From Candidatus Woesearchaeota archaeon (GTDB lineage: Archaea > Nanobdellota > Nanobdellia > Woesearchaeales > GW2011-AR9): a stretch of 64,000 nucleotides of DNA. The notes beneath the pieces are model-generated. The model searched no databases and was not told where the DNA came from. It saw nothing but the letters and a program-made list of their open reading frames with translations. Location of the stretch: NCBI GenBank assembly GCA_016188115.1, contig JACPIK010000002.1:1395771-1459770 (forward strand), written 5' to 3'. A program made the translations under genes and the position numbers. This document shows positions 1,725 to 62,215 of this stretch, piece after piece; position 1 is the first letter of the stretch, and every line of letters begins with the position of its first letter.

Positions 1725-4559
1725 ATGAAAAGAAAAGAGGTTTATGCTGTAACAAAACTAGACAGAGTTCTCTTTCTCTGTTTATTACTCTTAACTCTCC
1801 TTTCTATTTCGGGTCTTGCTGTACCCATAAGGGATACAGTTTGTGAATTAGATGGTTCATTGCGTTGTTCTGCTCCTAATAGTGTCCTTGTTGGCTCAGC
1901 TGGAGCAAATCAGCCTCCTCCGTTTGTGCTAGGATATAATAATCAAGCTGTTAGTATTACCAATGCAGCATACCTCACATTTGAGAACCATCCTTTTGAA
2001 AGTCAAACGGGAAATCTTGCATTATGGTTTAAGTTAGATCCAATCATGGAACCAAGTATCACTGCTCCTGTAAAACTGTTAAAGATTTTTGAAACGGGAA
2101 ACAATCAAAATTATCTTGCTGTTCTCTATAAATCAAATGGGGAGATGGTTGTGCAATCAACTCGCAACGATAACCTCAATGTTCCAGCAAATAAACTACA
2201 ATGGAAATACATTGTCCACAAACCTCTTACTGTTGACGAATGGCATCACTTTACTTTTAGTTGGCAGCGCAACCAAGCAGGTATTCCTGATGATGTAAAA
2301 GTATTCATTGATGGTGAAGAACTGCGAAAGAGTAACTTTGTTTTTGAAGACAGTTCTGGTTTGAGAGCAACCTGGCAGCGAGGACATATTGCTAAATTGC
2401 CCTCTTTATTTCCCAATACGCGAGTTATTATTGCTAAAGGCTCTGCATCTTCAGGAAATACGCTCATAGATCAACTTAGTTTTTCACCAGAATATGTTAC
2501 TGCTGTTTGCCCTTATTGCGAAGTACTTGATGATGTTGTTCTCTATCAAAAACCTCTCTTTACAGATAAAGGGACTTATTCAACACTCCTTCCTTCCACT
2601 AAGCCACAACCCTCTGAGATCATCGAAAGCCTCTCTCTCACTGCAACCCCTGGAGAATATGAACCTACTAGTTTTGCTATTTTTACACAAAATGAACCTC
2701 TTAGAGATGTGACTGCCCAAATATCCTCTTTGAGATCTGCAGCAGGGAATTCTATTCCTATTGAGAATATCGATTTACGAGTTGTAAAAGTGTGGACTCG
2801 TGCTGGATTTGGAGCTAATTCTGCCGCAGGTTTTACATTAGGACAATCCAAACTTCAATGGGACGAATTTGGTATTAATGAAAAAGGCATTCTTGTCGCA
2901 GATATGTTGGTGTATGATGATGGTCAGGATCTAAAAGCATTAGAAAGATATAATCCCGATGGAACCTATACTGCTCCTCGCATAGCCACTCAACTTCGAA
3001 CTACTATTTCCGTTGGAGAATCCAAACAATTTTGGCTCACAATTCATGTTCCTCAAGATACTCCTGCTGGTCATTATCAAGGAGTTATCGCACTCCAAAG
3101 CCCATCTCTTGCAACTCCATTAACAATCCCTCTCTCTATAGAAGTTCTTCCATTCACTCTTGTTGAACCAAATCAAGTTCGCTCTATTTATTACCGCAAT
3201 TATCTTGGTCTAGGGGCTCTTCCTTCTGTGGGCGCTCCCGTATTTGAAAAAATTAGTGAAGAACGATATCGTGCTGAATTATCCGATATACGGGCACATG
3301 GTTTTAACGCAGTTCAGTTAAATTCGCAGCCAATGAGTGAAGAAGGGTTACGTCGTTCGCTTGAATTAGCCCGTAATGTTGGTTTTAGAATAGTTGATCA
3401 AACTGTTGCCAAAGGCGGTCGAGGCATGAGTATTGAAAGACAACTCGAACTCACACAACAGGCAGGTTTTGAGAAAATTCTTTATGCGTTTGATGAAAAA
3501 AATGAATATGCTCAAAACACCTTCGCCAACATTCTTGTTAAACTGTATGATTATCATCAAGCGGGCGCAAAAGTTATGAGTTCTTTAATTTGGCAGACTG
3601 CAGTAGAATATGAAAATCCTCAAAGTGTAATGTATGATCTAGAATATCAAAATGCCCCTTTACGAAACGTACGACCTGAAGTTGTAACCACTGGGCCTGA
3701 TTATGCAGTTATTGCTCTTCCAAATGAAGCGCATGAAGGTCGCGGCTTTGAGCGGTATTTAGATATCATCAATGGACGAGACGCACCAAGAATAAATGCA
3801 AAAGAAATGTATTATTGGCAAATAGGGATGCATAAACCATTTTACGCAAGGTATAATACGGGAGTTCTGGCATATTTCTTACGAAATTATATCTATGGTT
3901 TTAAGCCATATGCGTATTCCCATCAAGGCAGTCCCGGTTTTGGATATGGTTCTCCCTATGACACATTTGATAGTGCGTATATGTACGATGAACTAACTGA
4001 AAAAGGAGACGGGTATGTGGCTTCTCAAATGGCAGTCTATCCTTCAGCGCAAGGGCCAATCCCCACATTAGAATGGGAGGCTGTACGCGAGGGAATTGAT
4101 GATCTCAAATATTTAACAACACTCGACAATGCGTTAACTAGCTTAGAACAACAAGACCCTCGTCTCGCATCTCAACTTCGTGCAGAACTCAATACTGCGT
4201 TAGATCCATTTCGCCATCTAAACTCCTGGCGAATTATGTCGGGGGACGATTTTGACCAGTTACGCACAACCATTATCTCTCTTTTACGTCAAATTCCCGA
4301 ACCTATCTTGACTGCTATAGTTGAAGTGGATAATGTTAATGGTGTTCTAACTCAAAACAATAACAATATCATAGATAAAATAACTCTTGTTCAACAAGAT
4401 TCTCTCCAAGAAAATCAGCAAATCAATCTAGATGTTTGTTTGACATATCCTCAACTCATGCAACTTGCATCTCGTCTTGCTCAACAAGATGCACGCGGGG
4501 AAGATTTAGCCCCCATTAAACGAACCATTTTACGCACGTTTAATCTTGTCTGTTCTTAA
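1725..4559 (+). CDS. large secreted protein with an N-terminal LamG/concanavalin-A-like lectin domain
   Basis: 944 aa. N-terminal signal/TM 'VLFLCLLLLTLLSISGLA'. LamG-like block 'LALWFKLDP...WHHFTFSW...VKVFIDGEEL'. Remainder unassigned. Confidence 0.55.
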   Translation: MKRKEVYAVTKLDRVLFLCLLLLTLLSISGLAVPIRDTVCELDGSLRCSAPNSVLVGSAGANQPPPFVLGYNNQAVSITNAAYLTFENHPFESQTGNLALWFKLDPIMEPSITAPVKLLKIFETGNNQNYLAVLYKSNGEMVVQSTRNDNLNVPANKLQWKYIVHKPLTVDEWHHFTFSWQRNQAGIPDDVKVFIDGEELRKSNFVFEDSSGLRATWQRGHIAKLPSLFPNTRVIIAKGSASSGNTLIDQLSFSPEYVTAVCPYCEVLDDVVLYQKPLFTDKGTYSTLLPSTKPQPSEIIESLSLTATPGEYEPTSFAIFTQNEPLRDVTAQISSLRSAAGNSIPIENIDLRVVKVWTRAGFGANSAAGFTLGQSKLQWDEFGINEKGILVADMLVYDDGQDLKALERYNPDGTYTAPRIATQLRTTISVGESKQFWLTIHVPQDTPAGHYQGVIALQSPSLATPLTIPLSIEVLPFTLVEPNQVRSIYYRNYLGLGALPSVGAPVFEKISEERYRAELSDIRAHGFNAVQLNSQPMSEEGLRRSLELARNVGFRIVDQTVAKGGRGMSIERQLELTQQAGFEKILYAFDEKNEYAQNTFANILVKLYDYHQAGAKVMSSLIWQTAVEYENPQSVMYDLEYQNAPLRNVRPEVVTTGPDYAVIALPNEAHEGRGFERYLDIINGRDAPRINAKEMYYWQIGMHKPFYARYNTGVLAYFLRNYIYGFKPYAYSHQGSPGFGYGSPYDTFDSAYMYDELTEKGDGYVASQMAVYPSAQGPIPTLEWEAVREGIDDLKYLTTLDNALTSLEQQDPRLASQLRAELNTALDPFRHLNSWRIMSGDDFDQLRTTIISLLRQIPEPILTAIVEVDNVNGVLTQNNNNIIDKITLVQQDSLQENQQINLDVCLTYPQLMQLASRLAQQDARGEDLAPIKRTILRTFNLVCS

Positions 4560-7277: not shown

Positions 7278-8090
7278 ATGCCCTCAGATCCTTCTCATCT
7301 GCTACATCCATTAGTTGCAGCCTATACTCCTGTTCCAATAATCACTCCTCCAGAATCTAGCTCAAATGGGTATATGGTTCTCTTCGTTCATGGGCTTCCA
7401 GGTCATGGGAATGGGGGATTTATGCGCAATGCTTCGGAAAAATTAGTACAAGAGGGATATGCAACTTGCCGTTACTCCCTTCGACGCGACAATTCTGTGT
7501 GGGAACATGTTAAAGATGTACGCAAGGTACTTGGCTCGCCTCTTCTGGCTTCAGTAAGACAATTAGGGGCTTTTCGTCACGTCAACTTTGAAGATCATGT
7601 ATCTGACTTAGGAGATATTATCGAAAATCTCACTACTTCTCATCAGGGTTCCTCCTCTTCTTTCACTTCTCAAAAAATAATTATTGCGGCACATTCTTAT
7701 GGTGCAGCCGTGGCATTAGCCGTTTCCAGTGCGTTTGATGCAGATGAGTCACCTATCGCCGGATTATTTTTAAGTAATCCATTCATCAGCAAAAGTGTTC
7801 GTCATCACGTTCTTCCTGGATTTAGTGGTATGCCGGATGTAGAAGAATTAACCCAATACGCCGCGTCATATTCTGGTCCTATAATGCTTTTGTATGGGGC
7901 ACATGATACCCTTGTTCCACCTGAAAATAATTCTATTCTGATTGCAGAATCAAGAGTAAATCATGCTACAGTTACAATCCCCCTCCCTCTTACAGGCCAA
8001 CCAGATCATGATTTTACCAGGCCGCAAACCCGTGAAGCGTACACTGCAAATCTTCTTACGTTTGTAAACTGGCTAAATCAAAAAAAGTAA
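7278..8090 (+). CDS. alpha/beta-fold hydrolase (second, divergent copy)
   Basis: 'FVHGLPGHGNGGF' and 'AAHSYGAAVA' (GxSxG-like). Confidence 0.55.
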   Translation: MPSDPSHLLHPLVAAYTPVPIITPPESSSNGYMVLFVHGLPGHGNGGFMRNASEKLVQEGYATCRYSLRRDNSVWEHVKDVRKVLGSPLLASVRQLGAFRHVNFEDHVSDLGDIIENLTTSHQGSSSSFTSQKIIIAAHSYGAAVALAVSSAFDADESPIAGLFLSNPFISKSVRHHVLPGFSGMPDVEELTQYAASYSGPIMLLYGAHDTLVPPENNSILIAESRVNHATVTIPLPLTGQPDHDFTRPQTREAYTANLLTFVNWLNQKK

Positions 8091-24473: not shown

Positions 24474-24929
24474 ATGGCCGCCGAACCAAAAATCAGTGCA
24501 CATGAATCATCCGCAGGGATTATACTCTATCGCCTGCTTAACAAAAAACGAGAATACCTTCTTCTACAATATCATTATACTACTTCTTATTGGGGGCTGT
24601 GCAAAGGACGTATTGAACAAAATGAAGATCCTGAACAGACAGCACTGCGCGAAGCAGCAGAAGAAACAAGTTACACCAAGATCGAACTCCACTCTCGCTT
24701 TCGAGAAAAAACCTCTTACTTCTTTCTTCGGGAGGGGAAGTACATCTCTAAAAGCGTACTCTGGTTTTGCGGCAAGGTGTTGGATACTCACGATGGCAAA
24801 GTGTCATTTGAACACACCAAGCTCATCTGGCTACCATACGAAAAAGCAATTGAGAAATTAACCTATGACAATGATAAAAGAATGGTGCAAGAAGCAGAAG
24901 AGTTTTTGAAAAATTTTGAAAAGAAATGA
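24474..24929 (+). CDS. NUDIX hydrolase
   Basis: Nudix box 'GLCKGRIEQNEDPEQTALREAAEETS'. Confidence 0.75.
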   Translation: MAAEPKISAHESSAGIILYRLLNKKREYLLLQYHYTTSYWGLCKGRIEQNEDPEQTALREAAEETSYTKIELHSRFREKTSYFFLREGKYISKSVLWFCGKVLDTHDGKVSFEHTKLIWLPYEKAIEKLTYDNDKRMVQEAEEFLKNFEKK

Positions 24930-24946: not shown

Positions 24947-25573
24947 TTATCCTTTCTGTCCCAACCCAATATCCACCACAATAATCTTGGCATTATACTT
25001 CTCCAACCCAGGTTTAGTGTCATGAAACGTAAACACAGTGTCTACATCACAGATTTTATTTGCGACATCTCCGGTATCTGGATGAAGTCCTGAGGGTACA
25101 TCTAGTGATATTTTCTCCCCAGGTATAGAATTAAAAAAATCAATGCCCCAACTTACAGGTTCACGTATATCTCCCTCAATACCAATTCCAAGCATTGCAT
25201 CAACTAAGATTAATTGGTGTTTTGGTTGAAAATGAATCTTCTCTAAATCTTCTTTATTTTTAATAGGAACAATTGTTGCTTTTTGCCAAATTGCATCGTA
25301 TTCTTTGAGTGCTTCAGGAGTTAACTTTATTTTCTCACCAAAAAACAAAACCACTACGGGCACAGTCTCAAGTAAATAACGCGCAAGAGCAAATCCGTCT
25401 CCCCCATTGTTTCCTTGACCTGCAAAAATAATCACTCGTTTTCCTTCAACTTCATGGTGAATAGTTAATAGGTGTGCAACTTCGCGCCCCACATTATCCA
25501 TAAGATCTTTCGCAAAGACTCCTTGCTTCTGCGCTTCTCGTTCAAGCTTGCGTAATTGAGCAACTGTGATCAT
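24947..25573 (-). CDS. NAD(P)H-hydrate epimerase (YjeF N-terminal domain)
   Basis: 'FAGQGNNGGDGFALARYL' is the YjeF_N signature. Confidence 0.7.
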   Translation of the reverse strand: MITVAQLRKLEREAQKQGVFAKDLMDNVGREVAHLLTIHHEVEGKRVIIFAGQGNNGGDGFALARYLLETVPVVVLFFGEKIKLTPEALKEYDAIWQKATIVPIKNKEDLEKIHFQPKHQLILVDAMLGIGIEGDIREPVSWGIDFFNSIPGEKISLDVPSGLHPDTGDVANKICDVDTVFTFHDTKPGLEKYNAKIIVVDIGLGQKG

Positions 25574-26847: not shown

Positions 26848-28155
26848 TCAATCTAAGTTATCGATGTTTTTAGCTAGTGCATTTAATCCTCTTAACAGAT
26901 CATCATAAGTGTAAAAAGATACTTCCCCCAGATTCCTTGATTTAAACTCTCTTAGTTTCTCCTGTTCATAATCTTTTTCACAACCCATAATCAGAACACC
27001 TTTAACTCGGTTTATATCTTCTACTTTTAGATTACCTATTCCTTTTAGAACGGCTGATTTTTCATCACTTACTAAGTGAATCCAATTGTTCACTTGATCT
27101 AGTGCGTGTTGCATTTCTCTCTTTGTTTCACCATTTTTCTTCATTATTTGGAATGAAGGTTTTTCAATTTCTATAAGAAGAAGATCTTTCCTGTTTGTTA
27201 CTATACAAAAGTCAGTTTTATACTTACTCAAGATAGGCATTTTGTTATAAATCATCTCTGGCGAAAAAAGACTTAGTATTAATGTATTCCTTTCAATAAA
27301 TTTTTGAACTTCTTCTTCTCCAGGGTTACTTTCTATTAATAGTTTAAATGCATCAATTATTTTAATTATTGAAGCTTTTGTATAATAATTCTGTGCAGAT
27401 ATAATTTTTTGACTGCCATTTTTGACTTTTCCTAATAAAGCGTGAAAGTTTTCACGTATGTATTTGAGACTAAATGAAGAATTCCTACACTTACAAGAGA
27501 AAATATCTGGTAAATCCTCAAACCAGATATCTCCTTTTTCCTCAAATACTTTATCTCTCTCTAAACCTACATAAATCTTAAGTTCTGCTTTGCAGTTTTT
27601 ACAACCAAGTTGAATTGCTATTTTCTTTGAGATGGCGGGGTCAGCTTTTAGAGCAGCAATCCTCTCTTTACTTAAGGGGGGAACTTTTTGATAATGAAAA
27701 GTAACTGACCCGATTGGGATTTTTTCACCATCTTGTTCTAAAAAAATATTAAGTGTCGTCGGTTCGGATAAAATTATATCCTTCTCGAAGTCGCAGAGGA
27801 AAAGCGACCAACCCGTAGTTAAATCTCGAACTTTAATTGAAAAAGTATTTCCCCTATCAACGTTTAAATTTCTTTTATTGATTCCTTGTTCGTGATATTT
27901 TAAAGACATTTTTTGAATTAGAAGTCCGTTCTGATCCAAAAATTCTAGATTTGTATCTTTTAAATTTTTAACGTCATAAATCGCGAATACTAATTTTTTA
28001 AATTCTTTAAGATTTATAGGAAAGATGAGACAAAAACAGTTAGAGTTAATACCTATTAAATTGTGGTACCAACTTCTATAATCTCCCTCTCTAATCGACT
28101 CTCCTTTCTCACACAAACCTAAGAAAGCTACTCTGGGAATAATATTACTGCTCAT
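26848..28155 (-). CDS. AT-rich hypothetical protein with a C-terminal PD-(D/E)xK-like nuclease signature (possible DUF4263 / Shedu-like)
   Basis: C-terminal 'KTDFCIVTNRKDLLLIEIEKP...QHALDQVNNW' reads as a D...E-x-K-type core. Internal CxxC...CxC 'CKNCKAEL...CKCRN'. Composition is distinctly more AT-rich than the flanking uppS and mutL. Confidence 0.3.
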   Translation of the reverse strand: MSSNIIPRVAFLGLCEKGESIREGDYRSWYHNLIGINSNCFCLIFPINLKEFKKLVFAIYDVKNLKDTNLEFLDQNGLLIQKMSLKYHEQGINKRNLNVDRGNTFSIKVRDLTTGWSLFLCDFEKDIILSEPTTLNIFLEQDGEKIPIGSVTFHYQKVPPLSKERIAALKADPAISKKIAIQLGCKNCKAELKIYVGLERDKVFEEKGDIWFEDLPDIFSCKCRNSSFSLKYIRENFHALLGKVKNGSQKIISAQNYYTKASIIKIIDAFKLLIESNPGEEEVQKFIERNTLILSLFSPEMIYNKMPILSKYKTDFCIVTNRKDLLLIEIEKPSFQIMKKNGETKREMQHALDQVNNWIHLVSDEKSAVLKGIGNLKVEDINRVKGVLIMGCEKDYEQEKLREFKSRNLGEVSFYTYDDLLRGLNALAKNIDNLD

Positions 28156-33663: not shown

Positions 33664-34110
33664 TCATTTTTTTACTCCTGAACGATCAATTACTGCGTGA
33701 ATTTTTCTATTTTCTTGTAAATATTCCTGATTATTATTTAGGAGTGTTTCTTCTCTTATTTTGTCAATGTCTGGATTAATTGCTCTTGCTATTTTATAAT
33801 AAAGATCTGAATTCTTATTGAAAAAAATCTTTCCATTATCTGCAAGTTCAAACCAGGCAAATGCATTATAGTGATTCAATAAAATTGATTTTTCAAAACA
33901 ATAGGTATCGTTATGAAATCTACCCATTAATTTTAACTTAAGCCCTTTTTGAAACCAACCCTCTGCAGTTGAAGGATTTATTTTCAAAAAGTCTTTTATC
34001 TTTTCAACTAATCTAAAAGGAAAGTATTCTTTTCGCTTGGTTTTAATTATGGAATCTATCCCCCCTTCTATCAAATTTTCCAATTCGTTATCTTTCTTAG
34101 ATTCTTTCAT
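33664..34110 (-). CDS. hypothetical (TPR-like helical) protein
   Basis: AT-rich, 148 aa. Confidence 0.3.
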   Translation of the reverse strand: MKESKKDNELENLIEGGIDSIIKTKRKEYFPFRLVEKIKDFLKINPSTAEGWFQKGLKLKLMGRFHNDTYCFEKSILLNHYNAFAWFELADNGKIFFNKNSDLYYKIARAINPDIDKIREETLLNNNQEYLQENRKIHAVIDRSGVKK

Positions 34111-34397
34111 TTTTTTCTTTTGTTGTTTAATTTCTTAAAAATAGGGTAGGTGATTAAGACAGTTAAGATATAATAAAAAAGAGTTACCAATAAACATACC
34201 CCCAATAAACTCCAAAGCCCGTTTATTTGAGGTTTTAACTCTTCATATAAGACAAAAAACAAAGCGGAAAGCAATCCAGAAAACACTGCAATTAAGAAAA
34301 GAAAGTTATGTTCTTTGAAAGTGTACTCATCCATGATAGGTTTAAAGATCAAACGTATATAAAATTTGTTAGGAATTTTACGCAAGCAGCAGATCAA
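34107..34397 (-). CDS. small membrane protein
   Basis: Two hydrophobic helices. Overlaps both neighbours by 4 bp and 20 bp. Confidence 0.3.
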   Translation of the reverse strand: MICCLRKIPNKFYIRLIFKPIMDEYTFKEHNFLFLIAVFSGLLSALFFVLYEELKPQINGLWSLLGVCLLVTLFYYILTVLITYPIFKKLNNKRKK

Positions 34398-35127
34398 TAT
34401 ATTGTATTGGTCCTTTGTAATCTTCTCTCATAATTCGACGTACTTTATCTGCTGGAAACGGTTCTTTATACCCACGTCGACATGACAATGCATCATATTC
34501 ATCAGCGGCTGCAATGATTTGTGCATCAGTTATAATCTCTAAGTTCATCTCACGGCGCTCACGGGTTCGGCGTTCCACACCCCGACGATAATCCCACCCA
34601 GTCATGTGAGGAACACTTGTCATAAAAGAATAGCGTTCGACTTCTTGGGGATCTACACTTCGATGATAACGATGATAATTCCTAGGCATCATAACTGCCC
34701 GTAATCGTCTCTCCATTTCACGTCGTTGTCGTCCTCGTGGATAAGATCGTGATTGGAATTCATGATGTGCAACGACCATCAAAGGTACTTGCGCAATACT
34801 AAAATCACCTAATTCATTAAACCCGATTCGCGGATGCTCTCTCATTCTTCCATATTCCTCATCATTAAGAGGGCCAGGTTTAGCAAGTATACAATGCGAA
34901 ACTCCTAGTTTACCAATGTCATGCAGTGCTCCTCCATATCCTAACCCCAGCAAGCGAGCATCATCAAGCCCCATCTGTTCACCAAGATGAATCGCAAATC
35001 TACCTGTTCGTACAACGTGCCTATAGCTATCTGGATGATACGATCGAAGGCCTTTAAGACGCAATAATACTTGTGGGTCACGTAGAATTCGCTGATAAAT
35101 TATATTCCCTCGTTGTGAGAACTCCAT
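34378..35127 (-). CDS. HD-GYP-like HD-domain phosphohydrolase with an Arg-rich insertion
   Basis: 'HVVRTGRFAIHLGE', 'GGALHDIGKLGV', 'EEYGRMREHP', 'AAADEYDALSCRRGYKEP'. A highly basic ~60-aa Arg-rich insert sits between the motifs. Confidence 0.5.
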   Translation of the reverse strand: MEFSQRGNIIYQRILRDPQVLLRLKGLRSYHPDSYRHVVRTGRFAIHLGEQMGLDDARLLGLGYGGALHDIGKLGVSHCILAKPGPLNDEEYGRMREHPRIGFNELGDFSIAQVPLMVVAHHEFQSRSYPRGRQRREMERRLRAVMMPRNYHRYHRSVDPQEVERYSFMTSVPHMTGWDYRRGVERRTRERREMNLEIITDAQIIAAADEYDALSCRRGYKEPFPADKVRRIMREDYKGPIQYIDLLLA

Positions 35128-35179
35128 AGTATAGGGTGCGTCTAATTCTATAAAAATCTTACGAGAAAAATGAGTGGCT

Positions 35180-36286
35180 TTAAAGTCTTCTCACAACCCC
35201 ATTTGTTGCATCTAGTTCAATAAGATCACCGTCCTGAAGCAATGTCGTGGCATTCTTGGTCCCAACGACACAGGGTTTGCCTAATTCTCTTGCAACGATT
35301 GCGGCATGACTTAATATCCCTCCTTGATCGGTAATAATACCAACTGATTGTTGCATCAACATGACGTGAGCTGGTGTGGTCATAGGACAAACTAATATAT
35401 CTCCTTTCTCAAGATTTTTATTGTCAGTATGCGAATGTATTACCTTCGCCTTACCTTGTACCACTCCTACATGCGCACTTTGTCCCTGAAGCAACGAGCT
35501 CGAACGAGAAGAAGTAATAACGGGCATAAACAGGTTGTACATTTCAGCTAAAGTAGTATTGTAATCGATAAACCAAGTACCAAATTCATTAGAAGTTGAG
35601 GTCTCGAAATAGCCTTGAAGGTAATCCTCGAAGAATTTTGCGTTGAGTGTGTGGGTAATTTTCTTTCTTGTTACTTCATCATTGACACTGATTAACCTGA
35701 GTATCTCTTCGATTTGGTGTTGTGCATCAAGATCAGGTTGACTTAATTTTAATTGTTTTAAATCGTAGGAAAAAACAATAGGTTGCTGTGAATCATGAAA
35801 CCCTTGTGTAAGCTGATGATGTCCTCCTTTGACAATTTCACCAAAAATACCCTTTGAATTCACAATAAAAATCGTGGACCACAATGAGGTTTCTGGATGA
35901 GGAACAAAATCTGCTCGATATTTTGTAGGATCAATTTGTTGTTGGTTGAACCAAGAAATGGAATTTGATATTGTCTGTCCACGTGTGCGTAATTTTGGCA
36001 ACGCAGGGTCAGTAGGCATAAGTCTTAATGCACATAATTCTGTTCCATGCTCAGCGACAAATTTCTGAAATGCCAAACTATTCTGATCAATATCAAGAGC
36101 ACTGAATTGATAGGGTTTATCAAACGGCAATCCTATTAATTCATTTAAAACCCGAAGCCGTTCTCGCTTCTCATTATCCTCAACTCGTAATTTTTGTGCT
36201 TTTGAGTGTTTGATCTGCTCAAACCAATCTGTAAGAGAAATCTGCGTTTGGTAAAGATGAGGCAAATCCATAACTACTAGTGCCAA
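35180..36286 (-). CDS. protein with a C-terminal PEP-utilising-enzyme mobile (phosphohistidine) domain
   Basis: 'GIITDQGGILSHAAIVARELGKPCVVG'. N-terminal ~250 aa unassigned. Confidence 0.55.
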   Translation of the reverse strand: MALVVMDLPHLYQTQISLTDWFEQIKHSKAQKLRVEDNEKRERLRVLNELIGLPFDKPYQFSALDIDQNSLAFQKFVAEHGTELCALRLMPTDPALPKLRTRGQTISNSISWFNQQQIDPTKYRADFVPHPETSLWSTIFIVNSKGIFGEIVKGGHHQLTQGFHDSQQPIVFSYDLKQLKLSQPDLDAQHQIEEILRLISVNDEVTRKKITHTLNAKFFEDYLQGYFETSTSNEFGTWFIDYNTTLAEMYNLFMPVITSSRSSSLLQGQSAHVGVVQGKAKVIHSHTDNKNLEKGDILVCPMTTPAHVMLMQQSVGIITDQGGILSHAAIVARELGKPCVVGTKNATTLLQDGDLIELDATNGVVRRL

Positions 36287-36329
36287 GTTGAAGGTATATA
36301 AACTTTTCAGGGATCAAGAAGAGAAAAGA

Positions 36330-36770
36330 CTATGACTTATTTGTTGAAGTTAATCGCATGTAGTCTTGCATAATCTGATAATGGTCGAACACAAATTTAT
36401 TTTTTTCTATCTTGATTTCATCTAAACCTAATAGCATTACTCTTGTTTTACCTGCTTCATCTTTGATACTACCACTTGCAGACCCATATACTGCTGTTGA
36501 AATCTTTGGTCCACGCGGGTCTCTATCTGGAGAATCGTATATCCCTAATTCTCCTGTTATAACTAGCTCAAGACCAGTTTCTTTTCTAAATTCACGAAGC
36601 GCGCACTCTTCAACAGATTCTAATTTTAGTTTCAGTCCAGATAATCCTGAAAGATACTCCCGTCTTCCTCCGGGTAACGCATAACCTGAAGGATAGTTGA
36701 GTCTCTCTATGCATACAATTTTATCTTGGTACAAAGCGATCACATCTGCGCAATATTCAAGAGCAACCAT
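36330..36770 (-). CDS. NUDIX hydrolase
   Basis: Nudix box 'GGRREYLSGLSGLKLKLESVEECALREFRKETGLEL'. Confidence 0.7.
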   Translation of the reverse strand: MVALEYCADVIALYQDKIVCIERLNYPSGYALPGGRREYLSGLSGLKLKLESVEECALREFRKETGLELVITGELGIYDSPDRDPRGPKISTAVYGSASGSIKDEAGKTRVMLLGLDEIKIEKNKFVFDHYQIMQDYMRLTSTNKS

Positions 36771-37194
36771 TTGAATACCCCTGATTAATACTATGTATGG
36801 TATCTAAAACGGAGGGGAACAGTTTCTCCTCAATCCCAAGGAAAACTTTTTGTGGTTTCTCTGTTGCGATTCTATTTACCACATCTTCTAGCCCTACTAA
36901 GTTAGTTCTTACTACTTCATGTGTAGGGACAGAGTCGCTACTCCCATCATATGAGGAGCTTGAGTACTTACTTGCAAAATATGCAGCAACAATGTATTCT
37001 CCATTTGGATCAAAATCATTTGCTTTTCTCACGTTTCTTGCTAAGATTGGCGTGTCTTGAAGATTTGAAAGAGCAAAAGCCGTTGCCTCTTCTTTCTCAT
37101 CAAATGTTCTCAATGCATCATACATCATTCTTCCTTTACATTTTTCCATTTTTTCTCCATTCAAATCTCGTTTGAACAAAACAAAATATGTCAT
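36757..37194 (-). CDS. hypothetical protein
   Basis: 145 aa. Start overlaps the downstream NUDIX gene. Confidence 0.35.
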   Translation of the reverse strand: MTYFVLFKRDLNGEKMEKCKGRMMYDALRTFDEKEEATAFALSNLQDTPILARNVRKANDFDPNGEYIVAAYFASKYSSSSYDGSSDSVPTHEVVRTNLVGLEDVVNRIATEKPQKVFLGIEEKLFPSVLDTIHSINQGYSNGCS

Positions 37195-37230
37195 TTTTTT
37201 ACCTCCACATCTTCACCCTACTTAGCGTAG

Positions 37231-37272
37231 AAAGTACGTTAATATATAAACTTTGTGTAAAAAGTACGTTAA
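37231..37272. promoter_or_regulatory. direct repeat 'aaagtacgttaa' x2 in a divergent promoter region
   Basis: Copies at 37231-37242 and 37261-37272, with a related 'gacgtaaa' at 37287. Confidence 0.3.
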
Positions 37273-37323
37273 GTTGGCGTACAGGGGACGTAAATTTATA
37301 AACTCCCTAGAAATAAACCCAAC

Positions 37324-37935
37324 ATGGTTCAATACGAACACGCACGAGTAGCAGTTGATCCTGTAATAATTACGATTCATCAAAATCAGCTTAAAGTATT
37401 TCTTGTAAAACGTGAAAAAGAACCTTTTAAAGGAAAGTATGAACTTCCAGGCGGACTTTTACAACCAACAGAGAAAGCTGAAGATACAGTTATTCGAAAA
37501 TTGCGCGAACTAACTAGCTATAAAAATCCAATATTAACACAATTTCATACATTTACCGATCCTGAACGTGATGTGCGTGAGCGTACAATTTCCATTGGTT
37601 TTATTTGTCTTCTTGAACAAAGCACTATTCCTAATATTACTGAATTTCATCTAATAAAAAATTTGCCTTCTTTAGCGTTTGATCACAAAGAGATGATTCA
37701 AAAAGCTTTGGAATTTCTCAAATTAAATATTTCTCCCGCACTCCTAAAACACATTCTTCCTCCTTTTTTTGCTCTTAATTCTCTTCAGCTAGTTTATGAA
37801 CTTATTGAACAGCAATCATATGATAATAGGAATTTTCGAAAGAGAATGATTGCAGCTGAAATTGTAGAAGAAACAGATAAAATAGAAACTGACGTGTCAC
37901 ACCGTCCTGCGAAGTTATTTCGATTTAAAGTGTAA
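37324..37935 (+). CDS. NUDIX-domain protein with a C-terminal extension (NrtR-like?)
   Basis: Degenerate Nudix box 'GKYELPGGLLQPTEKAEDTVIRKLRELTS' plus an ~80-aa C-terminal helical region. Confidence 0.5.
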   Translation: MVQYEHARVAVDPVIITIHQNQLKVFLVKREKEPFKGKYELPGGLLQPTEKAEDTVIRKLRELTSYKNPILTQFHTFTDPERDVRERTISIGFICLLEQSTIPNITEFHLIKNLPSLAFDHKEMIQKALEFLKLNISPALLKHILPPFFALNSLQLVYELIEQQSYDNRNFRKRMIAAEIVEETDKIETDVSHRPAKLFRFKV

Positions 37936-38314
37936 TTGTTAAATTTCTTTTAATCCGCCAAGGATATATCAAAGATCCCACATATACCTCCGGACCACCA
38001 TATTGATCTGAAGTAATATCAACCAGAAGTAGATTATCTAATAGAAGAAAAGTATGGTTATATTCTCTGTATCTTCCCTGAACTATCTTTCCTCCTAATT
38101 TCTTCTGCAAATATACTGTTGCTAATCCACAATTAAGTGTAGGAAATAATTCTTGTGCTCTGAGAAGAAATAACTCAATATCTTCAATGCAGGTATATTG
38201 TTGGTATAAATCACGTAATTCATTAGAATTAATGGTGCCCTGCTCAAAGTCTTTACGAACCGTCAAAGCAACTTTTCTAACTCTTTCAAGATCCATGAAA
38301 GTAATTTGGCTCAC
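37925..38314 (-). CDS. hypothetical protein
   Basis: 129 aa. No motif. Confidence 0.3.
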   Translation of the reverse strand: MSQITFMDLERVRKVALTVRKDFEQGTINSNELRDLYQQYTCIEDIELFLLRAQELFPTLNCGLATVYLQKKLGGKIVQGRYREYNHTFLLLDNLLLVDITSDQYGGPEVYVGSLIYPWRIKRNLTITL

Positions 38315-38357
38315 TTAGATATAAAATTTTATAAACAGCTCTAAAAACAACCCTCTT

Positions 38358-38540
38358 GACGCCAGTGTCGCATAACTCGGAAGCAGCAAACTGCTGAGGA
38401 ATATTGCGCAGGTCTTGAAAGAACTATCCAACATAACCTGTCCCTCTGGGATTGTCGGTTCAAAACAACCTTTTAGAAAAAAGCTTGACCAAAACAAGCC
38501 TAACTGGTTATGAAAGTCCGGCCACTGGCGCTCATTTTCT
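38358..38540 (+). ncRNA. candidate ~180-nt structured ncRNA, identity unresolved
   Basis: TATA-like 'ttttataaa' (38327-35) about 25 bp upstream. 'cgccagtg' (38360-67) is complementary to 'cactggcg' (38523-30). Oligo-T run at 38535. Internal hairpin 'agcagcaaactgct'. Local GC is above the surroundings. Confidence 0.35.
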
Positions 38541-38578
38541 TAATTTCTACGCAAGAGTTATAAATACGCCCCCTCCCG

Positions 38579-47967: not shown

Positions 47968-48717
47968 ATGGGTAAAATAGTCTCCATAGGTGGGGGTTCA
48001 ATTGGCTTTCGACGTACTCCTCAAACTACCAAAATCGATCAAGAGATTATCAACCTTTCTGGTAAAAAGAAACCCAAAGTGCTTTTTATCCCTACTGCAA
48101 CTCATGATTCTGCTGAATACGTTGAAGCATTTCATAATCATTACGAAAAACGCTTAGGATGCGATGTCAAATCATTACTTCTCTACGATGCAAAGTATAA
48201 ACATATTGAGATAGAAAAGATGATTTTAAACGCCGATATTATCTATGTTGGTGGTGGAAACACCCTTAATATGATGAAGACTTGGCGTAAGTTTGGTGTT
48301 GACAAACTTCTTCACAAAGCCTACGAAAAAAACATTGTATTATGTGGCTTAAGTGCCGGTTCGATTTGTTGGTATAACCAAGGCAACTCTGATTCTTGGC
48401 GTGACCACAACAAAAAAGCACCATTAATCCTCGTTAAAGGGCTTAATCTTGTTAACGCAGTAGGTTGTCCTCATTACGACAACGAAAAAGACCGCAAGCC
48501 ATTTTTGAAGAAAATGATGCAACATCATACTGGTGTTGCCATTGCATTTGATAGCTGTGCCGCCTTTGAAATAGTTGGTGATTGGTATCGCGTGATTACA
48601 TCAAAAAAAGGTGTCGGTTGTTACAAAGTATACTGGAAAGAAGGCAAGTACTATTGCGAAAAAATAAGACAACGAAAAGAGTTTATGCCGCTGAAGGAAT
48701 TGCTTGTAAAAGGATAG
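47968..48717 (+). CDS. S51-family peptidase (dipeptidase E / cyanophycinase-like)
   Basis: 'IYVGGGNTLNMM' and 'LCGLSAGSICW' (nucleophile Ser). Confidence 0.65.
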   Translation: MGKIVSIGGGSIGFRRTPQTTKIDQEIINLSGKKKPKVLFIPTATHDSAEYVEAFHNHYEKRLGCDVKSLLLYDAKYKHIEIEKMILNADIIYVGGGNTLNMMKTWRKFGVDKLLHKAYEKNIVLCGLSAGSICWYNQGNSDSWRDHNKKAPLILVKGLNLVNAVGCPHYDNEKDRKPFLKKMMQHHTGVAIAFDSCAAFEIVGDWYRVITSKKGVGCYKVYWKEGKYYCEKIRQRKEFMPLKELLVKG

Positions 48718-48789
48718 ATCCCTCGAAACGTTTAAATCCCCTAAATTATTCTTATAATTGATGAAAAGAGAGGCTAGATCATTCTGGTT

Positions 48790-49896
48790 ATGCTCTTGTT
48801 TTTAACTCCTCTTGCTTTTGCAGTGCCTGACATCACTTTTGTTAATCCAACTCCAAGTAATAATGCATGCACTGGTTCGAATACGTCTTTTATCGTGAAT
48901 ACAACCATTACGGAAGCGAATCTAGGGTCAGTAACGTATTCTTTTAATGGAAGTAATGAGAGTTATGAATATTATAATGACAGCTTGGTTTTAATGTTGA
49001 ATTTTGATAATGCGAGTGGTTTGGGGGAGAATGATACCTATGTTGTTGATATGAGCAGGTATGGAAATAACGCAACAGCGTACGGCGGGCTTTTAGCGAA
49101 CGGGAATGGGAAGTATAGCGGGGCATTTAATTTCGATGGAAATGATGATTATGTGAATCTTAGTACAGATACTAATTTTGCCCAGCTCCAAGTAAACATG
49201 ACCATTACTGGCTGGTTTAATGAGAACGGAGCAAATGGCAACCCTACAATTTTTTCTCAATACAAAAGCGTGGGAAGCCATCAACTAGTAAAATTAGTGC
49301 GCCTCGATAGCGACAAAGTGAATTATTTTACATCCACTTCAAACGGAGGTTGGCAAATGCAAACTCATACTACGCCGTACACAGCCAACATCTGGAATTT
49401 TTTTGCTATTATTGTCTCAGGAAACTATACCAATCCCTCGTTGGCTATCTGGCTGAACGGCGAGAAACAGTCTTTTAGTCTTTCGGCGCTAAGTACGACA
49501 CCTGATACAACGGTTCTGATCCAAATCGGCTGGTCACAACGGCAGCTAGGAGGCGAGCAGTTTGGTGGTCTGATAGATGAGATACGAGTTTTTAACAAGA
49601 GCGTAAGTGATACTGAGATTTATGGGTTGTATGCTGGCAATCTTCGAAAGTATAACTCCAATGCCTGGGAGTTGTATATCAATCAGGCCTATAACGTGAC
49701 AGACGGATTACAGAATGGCCCCTATAATTATTTTGTCAGCGCGACCAATAATACTGGAAGCGGAACGTTAAGTAGTGTTCGAATTGTTAACATTGGTCCT
49801 GCTTCTGCTGCGCCAGAATGGAGTGATTATTGCGTATTATTGATACTTTCATTAGTCATTGGTGGATTTTTTATGATAAGAAAGAGAGTGCTTTAG
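48790..49896 (+). CDS. surface protein with a LamG/concanavalin-A-like domain and a C-terminal TM anchor
   Basis: Signal 'MLLFLTPLAFA'. LamG block 'GAFNFDGNDDYVNL...MTITGWFN...IDEIRVFN'. C-terminal 'VLLILSLVIGGFFMIRKR'. Confidence 0.6.
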   Translation: MLLFLTPLAFAVPDITFVNPTPSNNACTGSNTSFIVNTTITEANLGSVTYSFNGSNESYEYYNDSLVLMLNFDNASGLGENDTYVVDMSRYGNNATAYGGLLANGNGKYSGAFNFDGNDDYVNLSTDTNFAQLQVNMTITGWFNENGANGNPTIFSQYKSVGSHQLVKLVRLDSDKVNYFTSTSNGGWQMQTHTTPYTANIWNFFAIIVSGNYTNPSLAIWLNGEKQSFSLSALSTTPDTTVLIQIGWSQRQLGGEQFGGLIDEIRVFNKSVSDTEIYGLYAGNLRKYNSNAWELYINQAYNVTDGLQNGPYNYFVSATNNTGSGTLSSVRIVNIGPASAAPEWSDYCVLLILSLVIGGFFMIRKRVL

Positions 49897-49975
49897 TAAT
49901 GAAAAGCTTTGGTTACGAACAGAAAATCAACACAAAAAAAGTGACTACCATTTATTCTCTGCGACTTTTCAGAAC

Positions 49976-50365
49976 TTATCGTATCATTAAGACTTCACTA
50001 AAACCCCTAAAATCTTCATCAGCTGTAACTGCCATTGCAGATAAGACTTGAGCTGTGTGTAAAACAAAAGCATCAGCTAGGCCAAACTTAGTTCTTTCCT
50101 TACGTATTTTGGTATGGATTTTCCCCACTTCTTCTGCAAATTTGACATCCATGGTATAAATAGAAGAGATAGATAATATAATTTTTCTCGCTTCGCTAAA
50201 ATTCATCTCTTTTTTCTCAAAAAAGCTACTTAATTCTGCAATGGTGATTATGTTAGTATAAATCTTATTCTCATCATTTTCTAGGATAGATTTGACTTTT
50301 TCACCTTTTTTACTTCCATTAAAATACTCAACCCAGGCACTTGCATCTACCACAAATGAAGTCAT
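49976..50365 (-). CDS. vapC: PIN-domain toxin VapC
   Basis: 'VVDASAWVEYF...' PIN acidic residues. Overlaps the upstream antitoxin by 4 bp. Confidence 0.7.
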   Translation of the reverse strand: MTSFVVDASAWVEYFNGSKKGEKVKSILENDENKIYTNIITIAELSSFFEKKEMNFSEARKIILSISSIYTMDVKFAEEVGKIHTKIRKERTKFGLADAFVLHTAQVLSAMAVTADEDFRGFSEVLMIR

Positions 50366-51909: not shown

Positions 51910-52347
51910 TTAGTTTTTTGCTAAATATAAACTCAATAACCCTTCTAAAACATTTTTTCCAGTTAAATTTAATTGTCGCATAAATTGTATCATTGTCTGC
52001 TCATCACATTGGCCATAAAGAACATTTTTTGGAATAAATCCCGCAGCTCCAGCATTTTGCCAAAGTCGGATATACTGATCTCTCTCTGAGCTATTACTCA
52101 TACCATAAACTGGGGTATGTATCTTTTTCTCCCGTACTCTTTGACAAACGTCATATCCGTTCATTATGGGCATTTCTGTATCAACAAAAGCAAGATCTGG
52201 AAGAGTACTCTGACCAAAATAATTCAATCCCTCTTCTGCAGATTTTGCGCATTGAACATCAATACTTGAATCAAAAGACCTTCGAATCACCCTTGGAAGA
52301 ATTACATGTACATCAGGATCATCGTCTACAATGAGGACTATAGACAT
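51910..52347 (-). CDS. stand-alone response regulator receiver (CheY-like)
   Basis: 'IVLIVDDDPD', 'AFVDTEMP' (phospho-acceptor Asp) and a conserved Lys region. Confidence 0.7.
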   Translation of the reverse strand: MSIVLIVDDDPDVHVILPRVIRRSFDSSIDVQCAKSAEEGLNYFGQSTLPDLAFVDTEMPIMNGYDVCQRVREKKIHTPVYGMSNSSERDQYIRLWQNAGAAGFIPKNVLYGQCDEQTMIQFMRQLNLTGKNVLEGLLSLYLAKN

Positions 52348-60517: not shown

Positions 60518-62215
60518 CTATTTAATATGATATTTTTCCAACAGCTTCAAACTATCATTAAGTCCAGAGAAAGGATTAGCTGGTGGGGCGCCTGTGGGCA
60601 ATCCTTCACAAAGCTTCATCTGGTCTTGAAATGATCCTTTCTCAAGCACATCATATACATTTGGGACTGAACTATGAAGAAGTTGCACAAGAGGCCAACT
60701 AGCATTGTGCATCCTTGTTTGATTTTCTTTTACTCTCCAATCGCCTTCTTCCATTCCCTTTTTCATATTATCTTCACGTTCTGCATTTGCAATTCGATAA
60801 TTCCATACTAAATCTTGACAATGTTTTTGAAAGTCGAACCCGCGTAATTTCCATTCTTGTACTGTCCTCTTCTCTTGTTCATACTTTATGGACATCATCC
60901 AATTATCCATTGGTGGATCGTCTGCAGAGTATGCAAAATTATATGTAAGCATATCTGCATCTATAATATCCCCATTTATCTTGTTCCAGGAAGTTGTCCC
61001 GTTTTTTCTAACAATCTTTGAGACAAGATCAGGGTTGTAAAAAGCTGCATACATCGTTTTCTTATCATTAAATAAATACGAGAGTCCTTCAATTTTTGCT
61101 AATTGTGTGTGCTCATGAATATCGCCGCTTGTTCTTTCACCACCAGCATACATGCGAGCTATACGCATCTTTTGTTCGTAATCAATTTTCTTCTCTTGGT
61201 CTTCCGTTTTTATAATATATGTGCTGGCGCTTAATCCTATGGCGGTAGTTACAGCAACCGTCGTACCCCAACGTATAACTCTTGATAAAGGTCTTGATAC
61301 TTCATACTTTCGTACCGCTTTCTCGACTTCTTTAACAAGTTCTTCACCATCGTTAAGACGGGAGTCTTCATGAACAAGACATCTATGTAACAACTTTCTA
61401 AATGCCTTCGGGATGGGTGTATTACTATTTTCGATTTTATCATACACTAATCCATTCCAAACTCCTGGACTCTGATAGAGAAGATTCACTAACTCAGTTG
61501 CATTTGGTTTAAATTCTCCCTGGGGATCAGTCAATTCTTTTTCTAGTACATACTTGCCTGTAAACATTTTGTACAGCACTGATCCAAAAGACCAGACATC
61601 CATCTTAGTAGTAAGTTTTACTCCATCATCATTAAATCGTTCAGGCGCGCGAGTTAATTTATTGCCACCGCCAATACGCGTTGCGTACCCTGCTGTGGCA
61701 GTTCCAAAATCAAGAAGTTTAACATCTCCTTCACTAGTTAATCCTAAGTTTCCAGGATGATAATCTCCATGTTCTAATCCAACAACTTTATGCAAGTTTC
61801 GCAAGCCCCGTGCTCCACTTCGAGCAACCCGTATAACTTCGTCAAGAGAGAATGGCTTGTCTTCTTGCATACGCTCATAAAGAGTACGATCAACAAGTTC
61901 CATCATAAGATAATTAGTGCCATCAAGACTGCGTCCCGGAAAGAAAGAAACAAGACCCTCAAGTGTTTGTCCAAAACCACCTAATGCTTCCCGCCTAAAT
62001 GCGTCCTCCTGTGAAAGGCCGCGTTGTTCGAGAATCTCTTTAGCTCGTTCCTGCGGGTCTAAAACTTTCACTGCAACCGGTCGACCGGTACTGTCGTTAG
62101 TATATCGATAGACAATCCCGTTTGCTCCTCGATTAATCGGTCCAACGTGAGTATAACCCAAAATTTGAGGTGGTTGGAAGCCTAATATAACTATTATTGG
62201 GTCCAGCGAGCTCAT
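60518..62215 (-). CDS. eukaryotic-type Ser/Thr protein kinase with a C-terminal TM and an unknown domain
   Basis: Gly-loop 'RGANGIVYRY', 'VAVKVL', catalytic 'HGDYHPGNL', 'DFGTA'. TM 'TTVAVTTAIGLSASTYII'. C-terminal ~230 aa unassigned. Confidence 0.75.
   Translation of the reverse strand: MSSLDPIIVILGFQPPQILGYTHVGPINRGANGIVYRYTNDSTGRPVAVKVLDPQERAKEILEQRGLSQEDAFRREALGGFGQTLEGLVSFFPGRSLDGTNYLMMELVDRTLYERMQEDKPFSLDEVIRVARSGARGLRNLHKVVGLEHGDYHPGNLGLTSEGDVKLLDFGTATAGYATRIGGGNKLTRAPERFNDDGVKLTTKMDVWSFGSVLYKMFTGKYVLEKELTDPQGEFKPNATELVNLLYQSPGVWNGLVYDKIENSNTPIPKAFRKLLHRCLVHEDSRLNDGEELVKEVEKAVRKYEVSRPLSRVIRWGTTVAVTTAIGLSASTYIIKTEDQEKKIDYEQKMRIARMYAGGERTSGDIHEHTQLAKIEGLSYLFNDKKTMYAAFYNPDLVSKIVRKNGTTSWNKINGDIIDADMLTYNFAYSADDPPMDNWMMSIKYEQEKRTVQEWKLRGFDFQKHCQDLVWNYRIANAEREDNMKKGMEEGDWRVKENQTRMHNASWPLVQLLHSSVPNVYDVLEKGSFQDQMKLCEGLPTGAPPANPFSGLNDSLKLLEKYHIK

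Follow-up and report, generated by a model that had tools for sequence, protein, structure and literature searches.

Within a stretch of 64,000 nucleotides from the genome of a Candidatus Woesearchaeota archaeon (contig JACPIK010000002.1; this whole 64-kb stretch is referred to below as the window), a region of approximately 3.5 kb encodes a Nudix-like regulator, a protein of 145 residues, a small Nudix hydrolase, a protein with a phosphohistidine mobile domain and an HD-domain protein. Our analysis indicates that this region likely consists of three independent units lying side by side, the first of which is a NrtR-type repressor cassette; the other two are the gene of the mobile-domain protein, called the dikinase-like protein in the following, and that of the HD protein. 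In bacteria, from which characterised NrtR regulators are known, these proteins link ADP-ribose levels to nicotinamide adenine dinucleotide (NAD) or pentose metabolism. Here a compact and recurrent NrtR cassette is found in DPANN archaea, with the signature operator of the family rearranged around archaeal TATA boxes, and it makes it possible to test directly whether a metabolite sensor of bacterial type represses promoters in an archaeon, besides giving a handle on the family of the 145-residue protein. A first-pass annotation, made from the letters of the sequence, had read the same genes as one module for the turnover or signalling of nucleotide derivatives. Its observations are largely right: all open reading frames (ORFs) that it named exist where it placed them, and a Pfam check of every one of them confirms its reading of the domains. 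The interpretation as a single module is not supported, and the supposed signalling module appears to reflect no more than a chance order of genes. Two findings keep their interest, the archaeal NrtR cassette with its well-supported three-site operator and its 145-residue target, and the "lone" mobile-domain protein, which appears to belong to a widespread split dikinase.

Regulator, operator and recurrence of the NrtR-type cassette

The regulator gene and the gene of the 145-residue protein are divergent and separated by 129 bp, in which three 21-bp palindromic sites are located (sites A, B and C; Table 1). The 12-mer AAAGTACGTTAA, a direct repeat put forward in the first-pass annotation as a possible operator, is indeed present in exactly two copies (at 37231 and 37261) and is part of the predicted operator. 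It corresponds to the right half of an imperfect palindrome of 21 bp, of which there are three copies. Eighteen sites from six loci give the consensus TTnACGTA-N5-TACGTnAA, and the GT-N7-AC core is found in 18/18. Since 21-bp palindromic symmetry and a GT-N7-AC core are features of most NrtR motifs (PMC2330246), the operator signature of the family is present, and the three palindromes are predicted to constitute a NrtR-type operator. Seven loci, six of them distinct, show the same order of elements, that is a TATAAAT box, site A, site B, a second TATA-like box, site C and a Shine-Dalgarno sequence. The TATA box of the regulator gene lies within invariant columns of a four-locus alignment, and its distance from the start codon implies a leaderless mRNA. 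The TATA-like box of the operon is kept at the same position in all loci, and site C occupies the space between this box and the predicted start site. The centre-to-centre spacings of the operator sites are 22 and 30 bp, corresponding to about two and about three helical turns. Scanning the window with a position weight matrix (PWM) yielded just the three cassette sites, where 0.03 are expected from shuffled sequences; as the matrix was trained on the same sites that it recovers, this recovery is circular, the informative result being the absence of other matches. Scans of three other cassette-bearing loci (L083, L084 and L093) gave cassette sites only, and a scan of L001, a syntenic locus without the cassette, gave no site.

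As judged from profile and structure-based comparisons, the regulator is a member of the NrtR family. In addition to a NUDIX match of 45 bits, its C-terminal extension, which had been suspected to be of the NrtR type, matches NrtR_WHD (PF21906) with 66.8 bits against a cutoff of 27, and its best matches in the PDB, aligned over the full length, are Bacteroides BtAraR (5bs6, 5e-31) followed by Shewanella SoNrtR (3gz5, 2e-21). It does not appear to be an equivalog of the ADPR-responsive repressor defined by NCBIfam entry NF050029, for which it scores 112.7 bits against a cutoff of 400. Its Nudix box reads RK-L-R-EL-x-S instead of RE-x2-EE-x-G and is likewise degenerate in two orthologues; the Nudix-like domain is predicted to be catalytically dead. 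The recognition helix NRNFRK aligns with the DNA-contact helix KRNFRK of AraR, and in the wing K204 and R205 of AraR align with H193 and R194 of the regulator.

The regulator shares with the known NrtR and AraR proteins the two-domain build, the dead Nudix box, the NrtR-type winged helix and the RNFRK recognition helix, and the cassette shares with theirs 21-bp palindromic operators with a GT-N7-AC core in a divergent and presumably autoregulated arrangement, the tandem sites being like those of the araM promoter of AraR. It differs from them in its DPANN host, in the placement of the sites around an archaeal B recognition element (BRE) and TATA box rather than sigma-70 boxes, and in its predicted targets, which are the 145-residue protein and a small Nudix rather than genes of NAD biosynthesis or of pentose metabolism. 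Control of NAD biosynthesis or salvage, as expected of NrtR, was not found: no gene of these pathways is present in the annotated parts of the window, and no further operator in its 64 kb. The NrtR family already includes regulons unrelated to NAD (PMC2330246). A limited literature search found no paper on an archaeal NrtR, which is no proof of novelty.

The 145-residue protein has no Pfam match and only five close relatives. Its gene and the overlapping Nudix gene are predicted to be translationally coupled. The best PDB match of the small Nudix is an Aquifex protein (2yyh, 1e-16), and it carries the DPRG...FDH signature that is also present in NrtR/AraR and in ADP-ribose pyrophosphatase domains of the NadM type. 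On the contigs of relatives, a gene for a 204-residue NUDIX plus NrtR_WHD protein lies divergent from the 145-residue gene, which is followed by a gene for a Nudix of 136–142 residues, and neither an HD gene nor a mobile-domain gene is found near the cassette on these contigs. The cassette is found in no fewer than five further Woesearchaeota-like genomes, and its place in the chromosome varies among them; it is full in L083/L090, L084/85, L091 and L093 and partial in L086/87, L092 and L094, and its flanks differ (a UvrD helicase in L083 and L086, RFC/SMC in L084). Further cassette loci were added by a metagenome scan, and a narrow alignment of the 145-residue protein gave six loci. The regulator gene lies upstream of the 145-residue gene in all six loci with upstream sequence, and a Nudix gene lies downstream in seven of nine, other ORFs standing there in L089 and L092. 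In L083 (7607–7999) and L093 (about 3580–3990) a further small ORF separates operator site C from the 145-residue gene; that of L083 encodes a weak paralogue of the 145-residue protein (25% identity over 132 residues).

Two observations on the small Nudix speak against the mode of action proposed below. Its absence from two of nine loci implies that it is not an obligatory target, and in the window copy alone the box reads REFRKETGL, in which Lys replaces the first Glu of REx2EE, and six extra loop residues are present, whereas three orthologues have the canonical REFxEETGL. The enzyme in the window may, judging from its box, be weakly active or inactive. It is possibly a decaying or functionally shifted copy.

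As regards the effector, sensors of ADP-ribose can be told from those of arabinose at positions given in the AraR paper. R98 of SoNrtR, an ADP-ribose contact that is Gly89 in AraR, corresponds to Arg85 of the regulator and is invariant in the three aligned regulators; N43 of SoNrtR, an alpha-phosphate contact whose place is taken in AraR by Phe36, which fills the phosphate pocket, corresponds to Lys32. Two of the three discriminating positions hence favour a phosphorylated ligand, and because of these two residues and of a cassette Nudix with the DPRG...FDH signature we tentatively propose ADP-ribose, or a close relative such as ribose phosphate, as the effector. An ADP-ribose-type ligand, put forward earlier for the whole gene group, is in this way reasonable for the NrtR unit. 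The third position is at odds with the proposal, the ADP-contact residue K76 of SoNrtR being Leu67 in AraR and Leu63 in the regulator, and so is the score, which places the regulator closer to the arabinose-sensing AraR than to the ADP-ribose-sensing SoNrtR. Together with the sugar-binding triad of AraR (R34/R86/H131), which is kept as R30/R82/H121, these features would suit a regulator that senses a neutral sugar or ribose-5-phosphate, like AraR/XylR-type members, and an operon for pentose or ribose handling instead of ADP-ribose removal; Rib-P has also been suggested as the effector of some NrtR members (PMC2330246). We nevertheless regard a sugar sensor as unlikely: neither the cassette nor the DNA beside it contains genes of sugar catabolism or transport, Arg85 and Lys32 leave room for and could bind phosphate or ADP, unlike Gly89 and Phe36 of AraR, and the co-regulated enzyme is a Nudix, a type that acts on nucleoside diphosphates joined to another moiety.

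With ADP-ribose or a relative as the effector, the cassette might work as follows. Without ligand, regulator dimers would occupy the three sites and block TBP, TFB and RNA polymerase at both promoters, so that the regulator gene and the operon of the 145-residue protein and the Nudix would both be repressed. A phosphorylated ribose-type ligand, most likely ADP-ribose, would free the DNA; the Nudix and its 145-residue partner would then be made and would remove the ligand metabolite, closing a negative feedback loop.

The cassette could also be seen as a mobile or defence island that senses, for example, ADP-ribose-type immune signals or NAD depletion, with the 145-residue protein as effector. 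Its different chromosomal sites across genomes would fit such an origin, as would its varying cargo (the extra small ORFs in L083 and L093, the non-Nudix downstream genes in L089 and L092), the tRNA gene at the corresponding site of L001 and a Shedu gene 9 kb away. On the other side, PADLOC and PHROG matches of the cassette proteins are to generic Nudix only, flanking repeats, an integrase and any compositional anomaly are missing, and a structural model of the 145-residue protein has no viral structural match, which makes a defence island quite improbable. Searches of all cluster genes against PADLOC and PHROGs for a defence or phage origin gave nothing specific.

Table 1. Positions of the cassette elements, the adjoining genes and the third Nudix in the window
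Feature	Positions	Strand	Remarks
NrtR/AraR-family regulator, 203 residues	37324–37935	+	Nudix-like effector domain with dead box (predicted), C-terminal winged helix
Operator site A (TTGGCGTACAGGGGACGTAAA), predicted	37274–37294		PWM score 18.2; abuts the regulator TATA at the BRE position; position kept in 6 distinct loci
TATA-like box (TTTATAAA), regulator gene	37295–37302	+	About 26 nt 5' of the ATG at 37324; putative promoter element
Operator site B (TTTGTGTAAAAAGTACGTTAA), predicted	37252–37272		PWM score 21.6; between the two TATA boxes
TATA-like box (TTTATATA), 145-residue protein/Nudix operon	37243–37250	-	Sites B and C on either side; putative promoter element
Operator site C (TTAGCGTAGAAAGTACGTTAA), predicted	37222–37242		PWM score 22.9; 1 mismatch from a perfect palindrome; directly upstream of the Shine-Dalgarno sequence GGAGGT
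145-residue protein	36757–37194	-	First gene of the predicted regulated operon; gene most tightly linked to the regulator
Small Nudix hydrolase, 146 residues	36330–36770	-	Pfam NUDIX 33 bits; overlaps the 145-residue gene by 14 nt
Dikinase-like protein, 363 residues from ATG	35180–36271	-	Divergent ATP-grasp domain and phosphohistidine swivel domain; separate transcription unit (predicted)
HD-GYP-family phosphohydrolase, stand-alone, 249 residues	34378–35127	-	Arg-rich insert of about 60 residues; separate transcription unit (predicted)
Two small ORFs downstream of the HD gene	33664–34397	-	Membrane protein of 75–96 residues; 148-residue protein with weak TPR match; both missing in L001
Third Nudix, Ap4A-hydrolase homologue	24474–24929	+	Pfam NUDIX 56 bits; intact box

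Gene order and probable independence of the three units

Comparison with other genomes separates the cassette from its neighbours. The closest relative, L001, is syntenic with the window (aCPSF1 93% identical, proteasome subunit 87%, DnaJ-like protein 80%, ion channel 72%), and its gene order is aCPSF1, the dikinase-like gene and a block of YunG, S4 and DnaJ genes, with nothing else in between. Relative to L001, the window has two extra blocks flanking the dikinase-like gene (33664–35127 and 36330–37935); the grouping is not conserved, the mobile-domain gene alone being present at this locus of the closest syntenic genome. In a sample of 80 genomic loci encoding relatives of the dikinase-like protein, a blastp search of every cluster protein against the ORFs found no homologue of the HD protein, the NrtR regulator or the 145-residue protein, the dikinase-like family alone being recovered.

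The signals between the genes are also separate. On the minus strand, a T-rich run comes after the stop codon of the Nudix gene, and after it AAAAGTTTATATA, whose distance from the ATG of the dikinase-like gene is about 24 nt; past the stop codon of the latter gene come a T5 run and TTTTTATAG, whose distance from the HD ATG is about 26 nt. A BRE/TATA element at such a distance from the ATG is the typical archaeal arrangement for leaderless mRNAs; by this established promoter geometry, the dikinase-like and HD genes are predicted to have BRE/TATA promoters of their own.

The occurrence of the cassette elsewhere without the HD and dikinase-like genes, the PPDK_N protein as partner of the dikinase-like family, the near-orphan status of the HD protein and these promoter-like signals do not support a single module. 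The model of the first-pass annotation, in which the regulator, its Nudix-box neighbours, the mobile-domain protein and the HD-GYP protein act on a nucleotide derivative under one operator, can appeal to the position of all genes but the divergent regulator on one strand with short gaps, to products that all plausibly act on nucleotides, and to the roughly threefold enrichment of Nudix genes near the dikinase-like family together with a Nudix fusion, but with L001 lacking everything except the dikinase-like gene, a cassette that travels without the other two units, promoter-like and terminator-like signals that are separate, operators in the divergent region only and no cyclase or NAD-biosynthesis or salvage genes in the annotated parts of the window, it is very improbable.

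Two points qualify the reading as independent units: independence at the locus is judged on one syntenic genome, and the Nudix enrichment together with the fusion protein P0005 leaves a possible functional link between the cassette and the dikinase-like gene. The Nudix domain of P0005 was considered as such a link and set aside, as it resembles the cassette Nudix in generic features of the Nudix box alone.

At the site of the window cassette (36287–38578), L001 carries on the minus strand, at 7645–7741, a tRNA of 97 nt that probably contains an intron (Rfam 43.8 bits; missed by ARAGORN); in the 64-kb window no tRNA was found by Rfam or by ARAGORN. The YunG-like gene (37925–38314) is inverted relative to L001. 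A recent insertion was considered and rejected, there being no notable flanking direct or inverted repeats and no GC anomaly.

Dikinase-like and HD-GYP-family proteins

The ORF of the dikinase-like protein reaches up to a TTG at 36286 (368 residues), the annotated product P0001 starting at an ATG five codons downstream. Pfam assigns a C-terminal phosphoenolpyruvate (PEP)-utilizers mobile domain with 93 bits and leaves approximately 260 N-terminal residues without a match. The swivel motif is T319-D-Q-G-G-I-L-S-H327; the His, whose conservation had been put forward as a check, is invariant in 26 sequences, as are many other residues. The protein had been described as a mobile domain with no partner domain. 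This holds for the PEP/pyruvate-binding TIM barrel, which is absent, PF00391 being the only domain found and the protein ending with the swivel domain, but does not hold for the N-terminal part, which has an ATP-grasp fold, nor for the genomic context, since the family is usually beside a PPDK_N gene. The assignment of an ATP-grasp fold is at the fold level only: in hhalign, the comparison of the N-terminal domain with PPDK_N has a probability of 0.13, which is not significant although the expected motifs are paired, so that the N-terminal domain is not shown to be PPDK_N at the sequence level.

The family comprises more than 1500 proteins of about 365 residues, which are 50–58% identical between DPANN archaea and Patescibacteria. 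One neighbour alone is conserved, a PPDK_N protein of about 320 residues that stands by itself (PF01326, 331 bits) and is encoded in 46 of the 80 loci and in 38 of these immediately upstream (position -1). Two-component dikinases are known in HpeHI, CreHI and PpsAB, with a T/SxxGGxxxH swivel motif that contains the catalytic His (PMC12167813). The dikinase-like protein has the T-x-x-G-G-x-x-x-H swivel and its family often lies beside a separate PPDK_N; by analogy with HpeHI and PpsAB, it would normally work with a stand-alone PPDK_N subunit, and the family appears, on the same analogy, to represent a split dikinase that is widespread and strongly conserved among ultra-small organisms, both archaea and bacteria. 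It differs from these systems and from rifampin phosphotransferase in that the swivel subunit has about 365 residues and an ATP-grasp-like fold, a substrate domain of the RIF-binding type not being found on it. An aromatic-catabolism context is lacking as well, and family members occur in fusion with, or next to, Nudix, CYTH and NTPase_I-T domains. No PPDK_N homologue is encoded in the 64-kb window, and most archaeal loci lack one. A limited literature search found no paper on this family in DPANN or Patescibacteria, which again does not prove novelty.

Fusions of the dikinase-like protein involve NUDIX (P0005), CYTH (L019, 3815–5443) and NTPase_I-T plus a SAM-methyltransferase (L005, 8334–11089), the last being preceded by a Nudix gene. 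These fusions suggest a nucleotide or polyphosphate substrate. Nudix genes are enriched within four genes of the family (24/567 vs. 11/803, odds ratio 3.2, p 0.0014), which suggests that the substrate is of the nucleotide type and would be compatible with some loose connection to Nudix enzymes at large. A further-reaching scheme would combine the ATP-grasp and swivel protein with PPDK_N as a two-component dikinase of a nucleotide-type acceptor, loosely linked to the NrtR-Nudix cassette in ADP-ribose or nucleotide salvage, with the 145-residue family as a new protein of an ADP-ribose pathway. It is based on the second ATP-grasp-like pocket, which replaces the small-molecule-binding domain, and on the fused or adjacent "house-cleaning" domains Nudix, CYTH and NTPase_I-T, and we consider it speculative and rather unlikely. 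The split dikinase may matter for nucleotide handling in ultra-small organisms with reduced metabolism.

The HD protein is a rare stand-alone member of the HD-GYP family of phosphohydrolases that was probably acquired horizontally. Pfam finds HD and HD_5 (PF13487, 35.1 bits vs. a cutoff of 27.2), and the best PDB matches are HD-GYP enzymes (PmGH, 4mcw, 6e-18; V-cGAP3, 5z7c; PA4781, 4r8z). In an alignment with its relatives the metal ligands H37, H69, D70, H98, H121, H122 and D209 are invariant, and the conserved Lys and the C-terminal D-x-x-D-A-L-x-x-x-R-x-Y-K helix are kept. The earlier HD-GYP call is borne out by this HD_5 match, these ligands and the structural matches, but the canonical D-G-x-G is missing: the signature HHExxDGxGYP reads HHEFQSRSYP, with the Asp and both Gly lost and Y-P kept, and two close relatives have the same degenerate pattern (SYP or AYP). 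The Glu that contacts the third metal of PmGH aligns with Ser. Only two full-length relatives exist, both on short contigs without common neighbours; both carry the Arg-rich insert (ERR...ERR), which is about 29 residues longer in the window copy. The remaining matches are partial alignments with bacterial REC plus HD-GYP response regulators. Compared with the HD-GYP phosphodiesterases PmGH, V-cGAP3, PA4781 and those of the RpfG type, the HD protein is alike in the HD_5 match and the full H...HD...H...HH...D set, and differs in its archaeal host, in having neither receiver nor sensor domain and in an Arg-rich insert of 40–70 residues in place of the G-L-x-G-x-x-I-P loop. A cyclic-dinucleotide synthase also fails to accompany it, GGDEF, CD-NTase and DisA proteins not being seen in the annotated parts of the window.

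Third Nudix and other genes of the window

The three Nudix proteins of the first-pass annotation all exist but are of different kinds, namely the regulator with the degenerate box, the cassette hydrolase and, 10 kb off, a homologue of diadenosine tetraphosphate (Ap4A) hydrolases. The PDB matches of this third Nudix are the Ap4A hydrolase of C. elegans (1kt9, 2e-15), human NUDT2 and Aquifex 3i7u. It has a Tyr 16 residues after the box position, and a Tyr 16 residues past the Nudix box is the signature rule for Ap(n)A (cited in PMC10311068). It is similar to Ap4A hydrolases over its full length, in the intact catalytic box and in the downstream Tyr, with no notable difference, and neither palindrome nor PWM scans found a NrtR operator near it; on these features it appears to be an ordinary Ap4A-hydrolase paralogue unrelated to the cassette. 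The two findings named at the outset as speaking against a common module, loss of the GYP residues and ordinary Nudix paralogues, are in this way each found in part, the first in the absent D-G-x-G of the HD protein and the second in this protein. Convergent to its gene lies a YjeF_N gene of the NAD(P)HX epimerase type (24947–25573, minus strand), which has no NrtR operator and is the sole NAD-related gene seen in the window.

The window is archaeal in its gene content, which includes aCPSF1, Orc1/Cdc6, a proteasome subunit and archaeal ribosomal proteins. Three consecutive ORFs at 47968–50365 have exactly the same lengths (249, 368 and 129 residues) as those of the HD, dikinase-like and YunG-like genes; a duplication was considered and rejected, the sequences being unrelated, and the match in length is a coincidence. 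A stand-alone receiver-domain protein of 145 residues is encoded at 51910–52347 and a Ser/Thr protein kinase of 565 residues at about 60518–62215, both on the minus strand. On the same strand, between the UPP synthase and MutL genes, a 435-residue protein with a Shedu SduA (DUF4263) nuclease domain is encoded at 26848–28155 (PADLOC SduA, 75 bits; Pfam SduA_C), an anti-virus defence gene in a DPANN archaeon.

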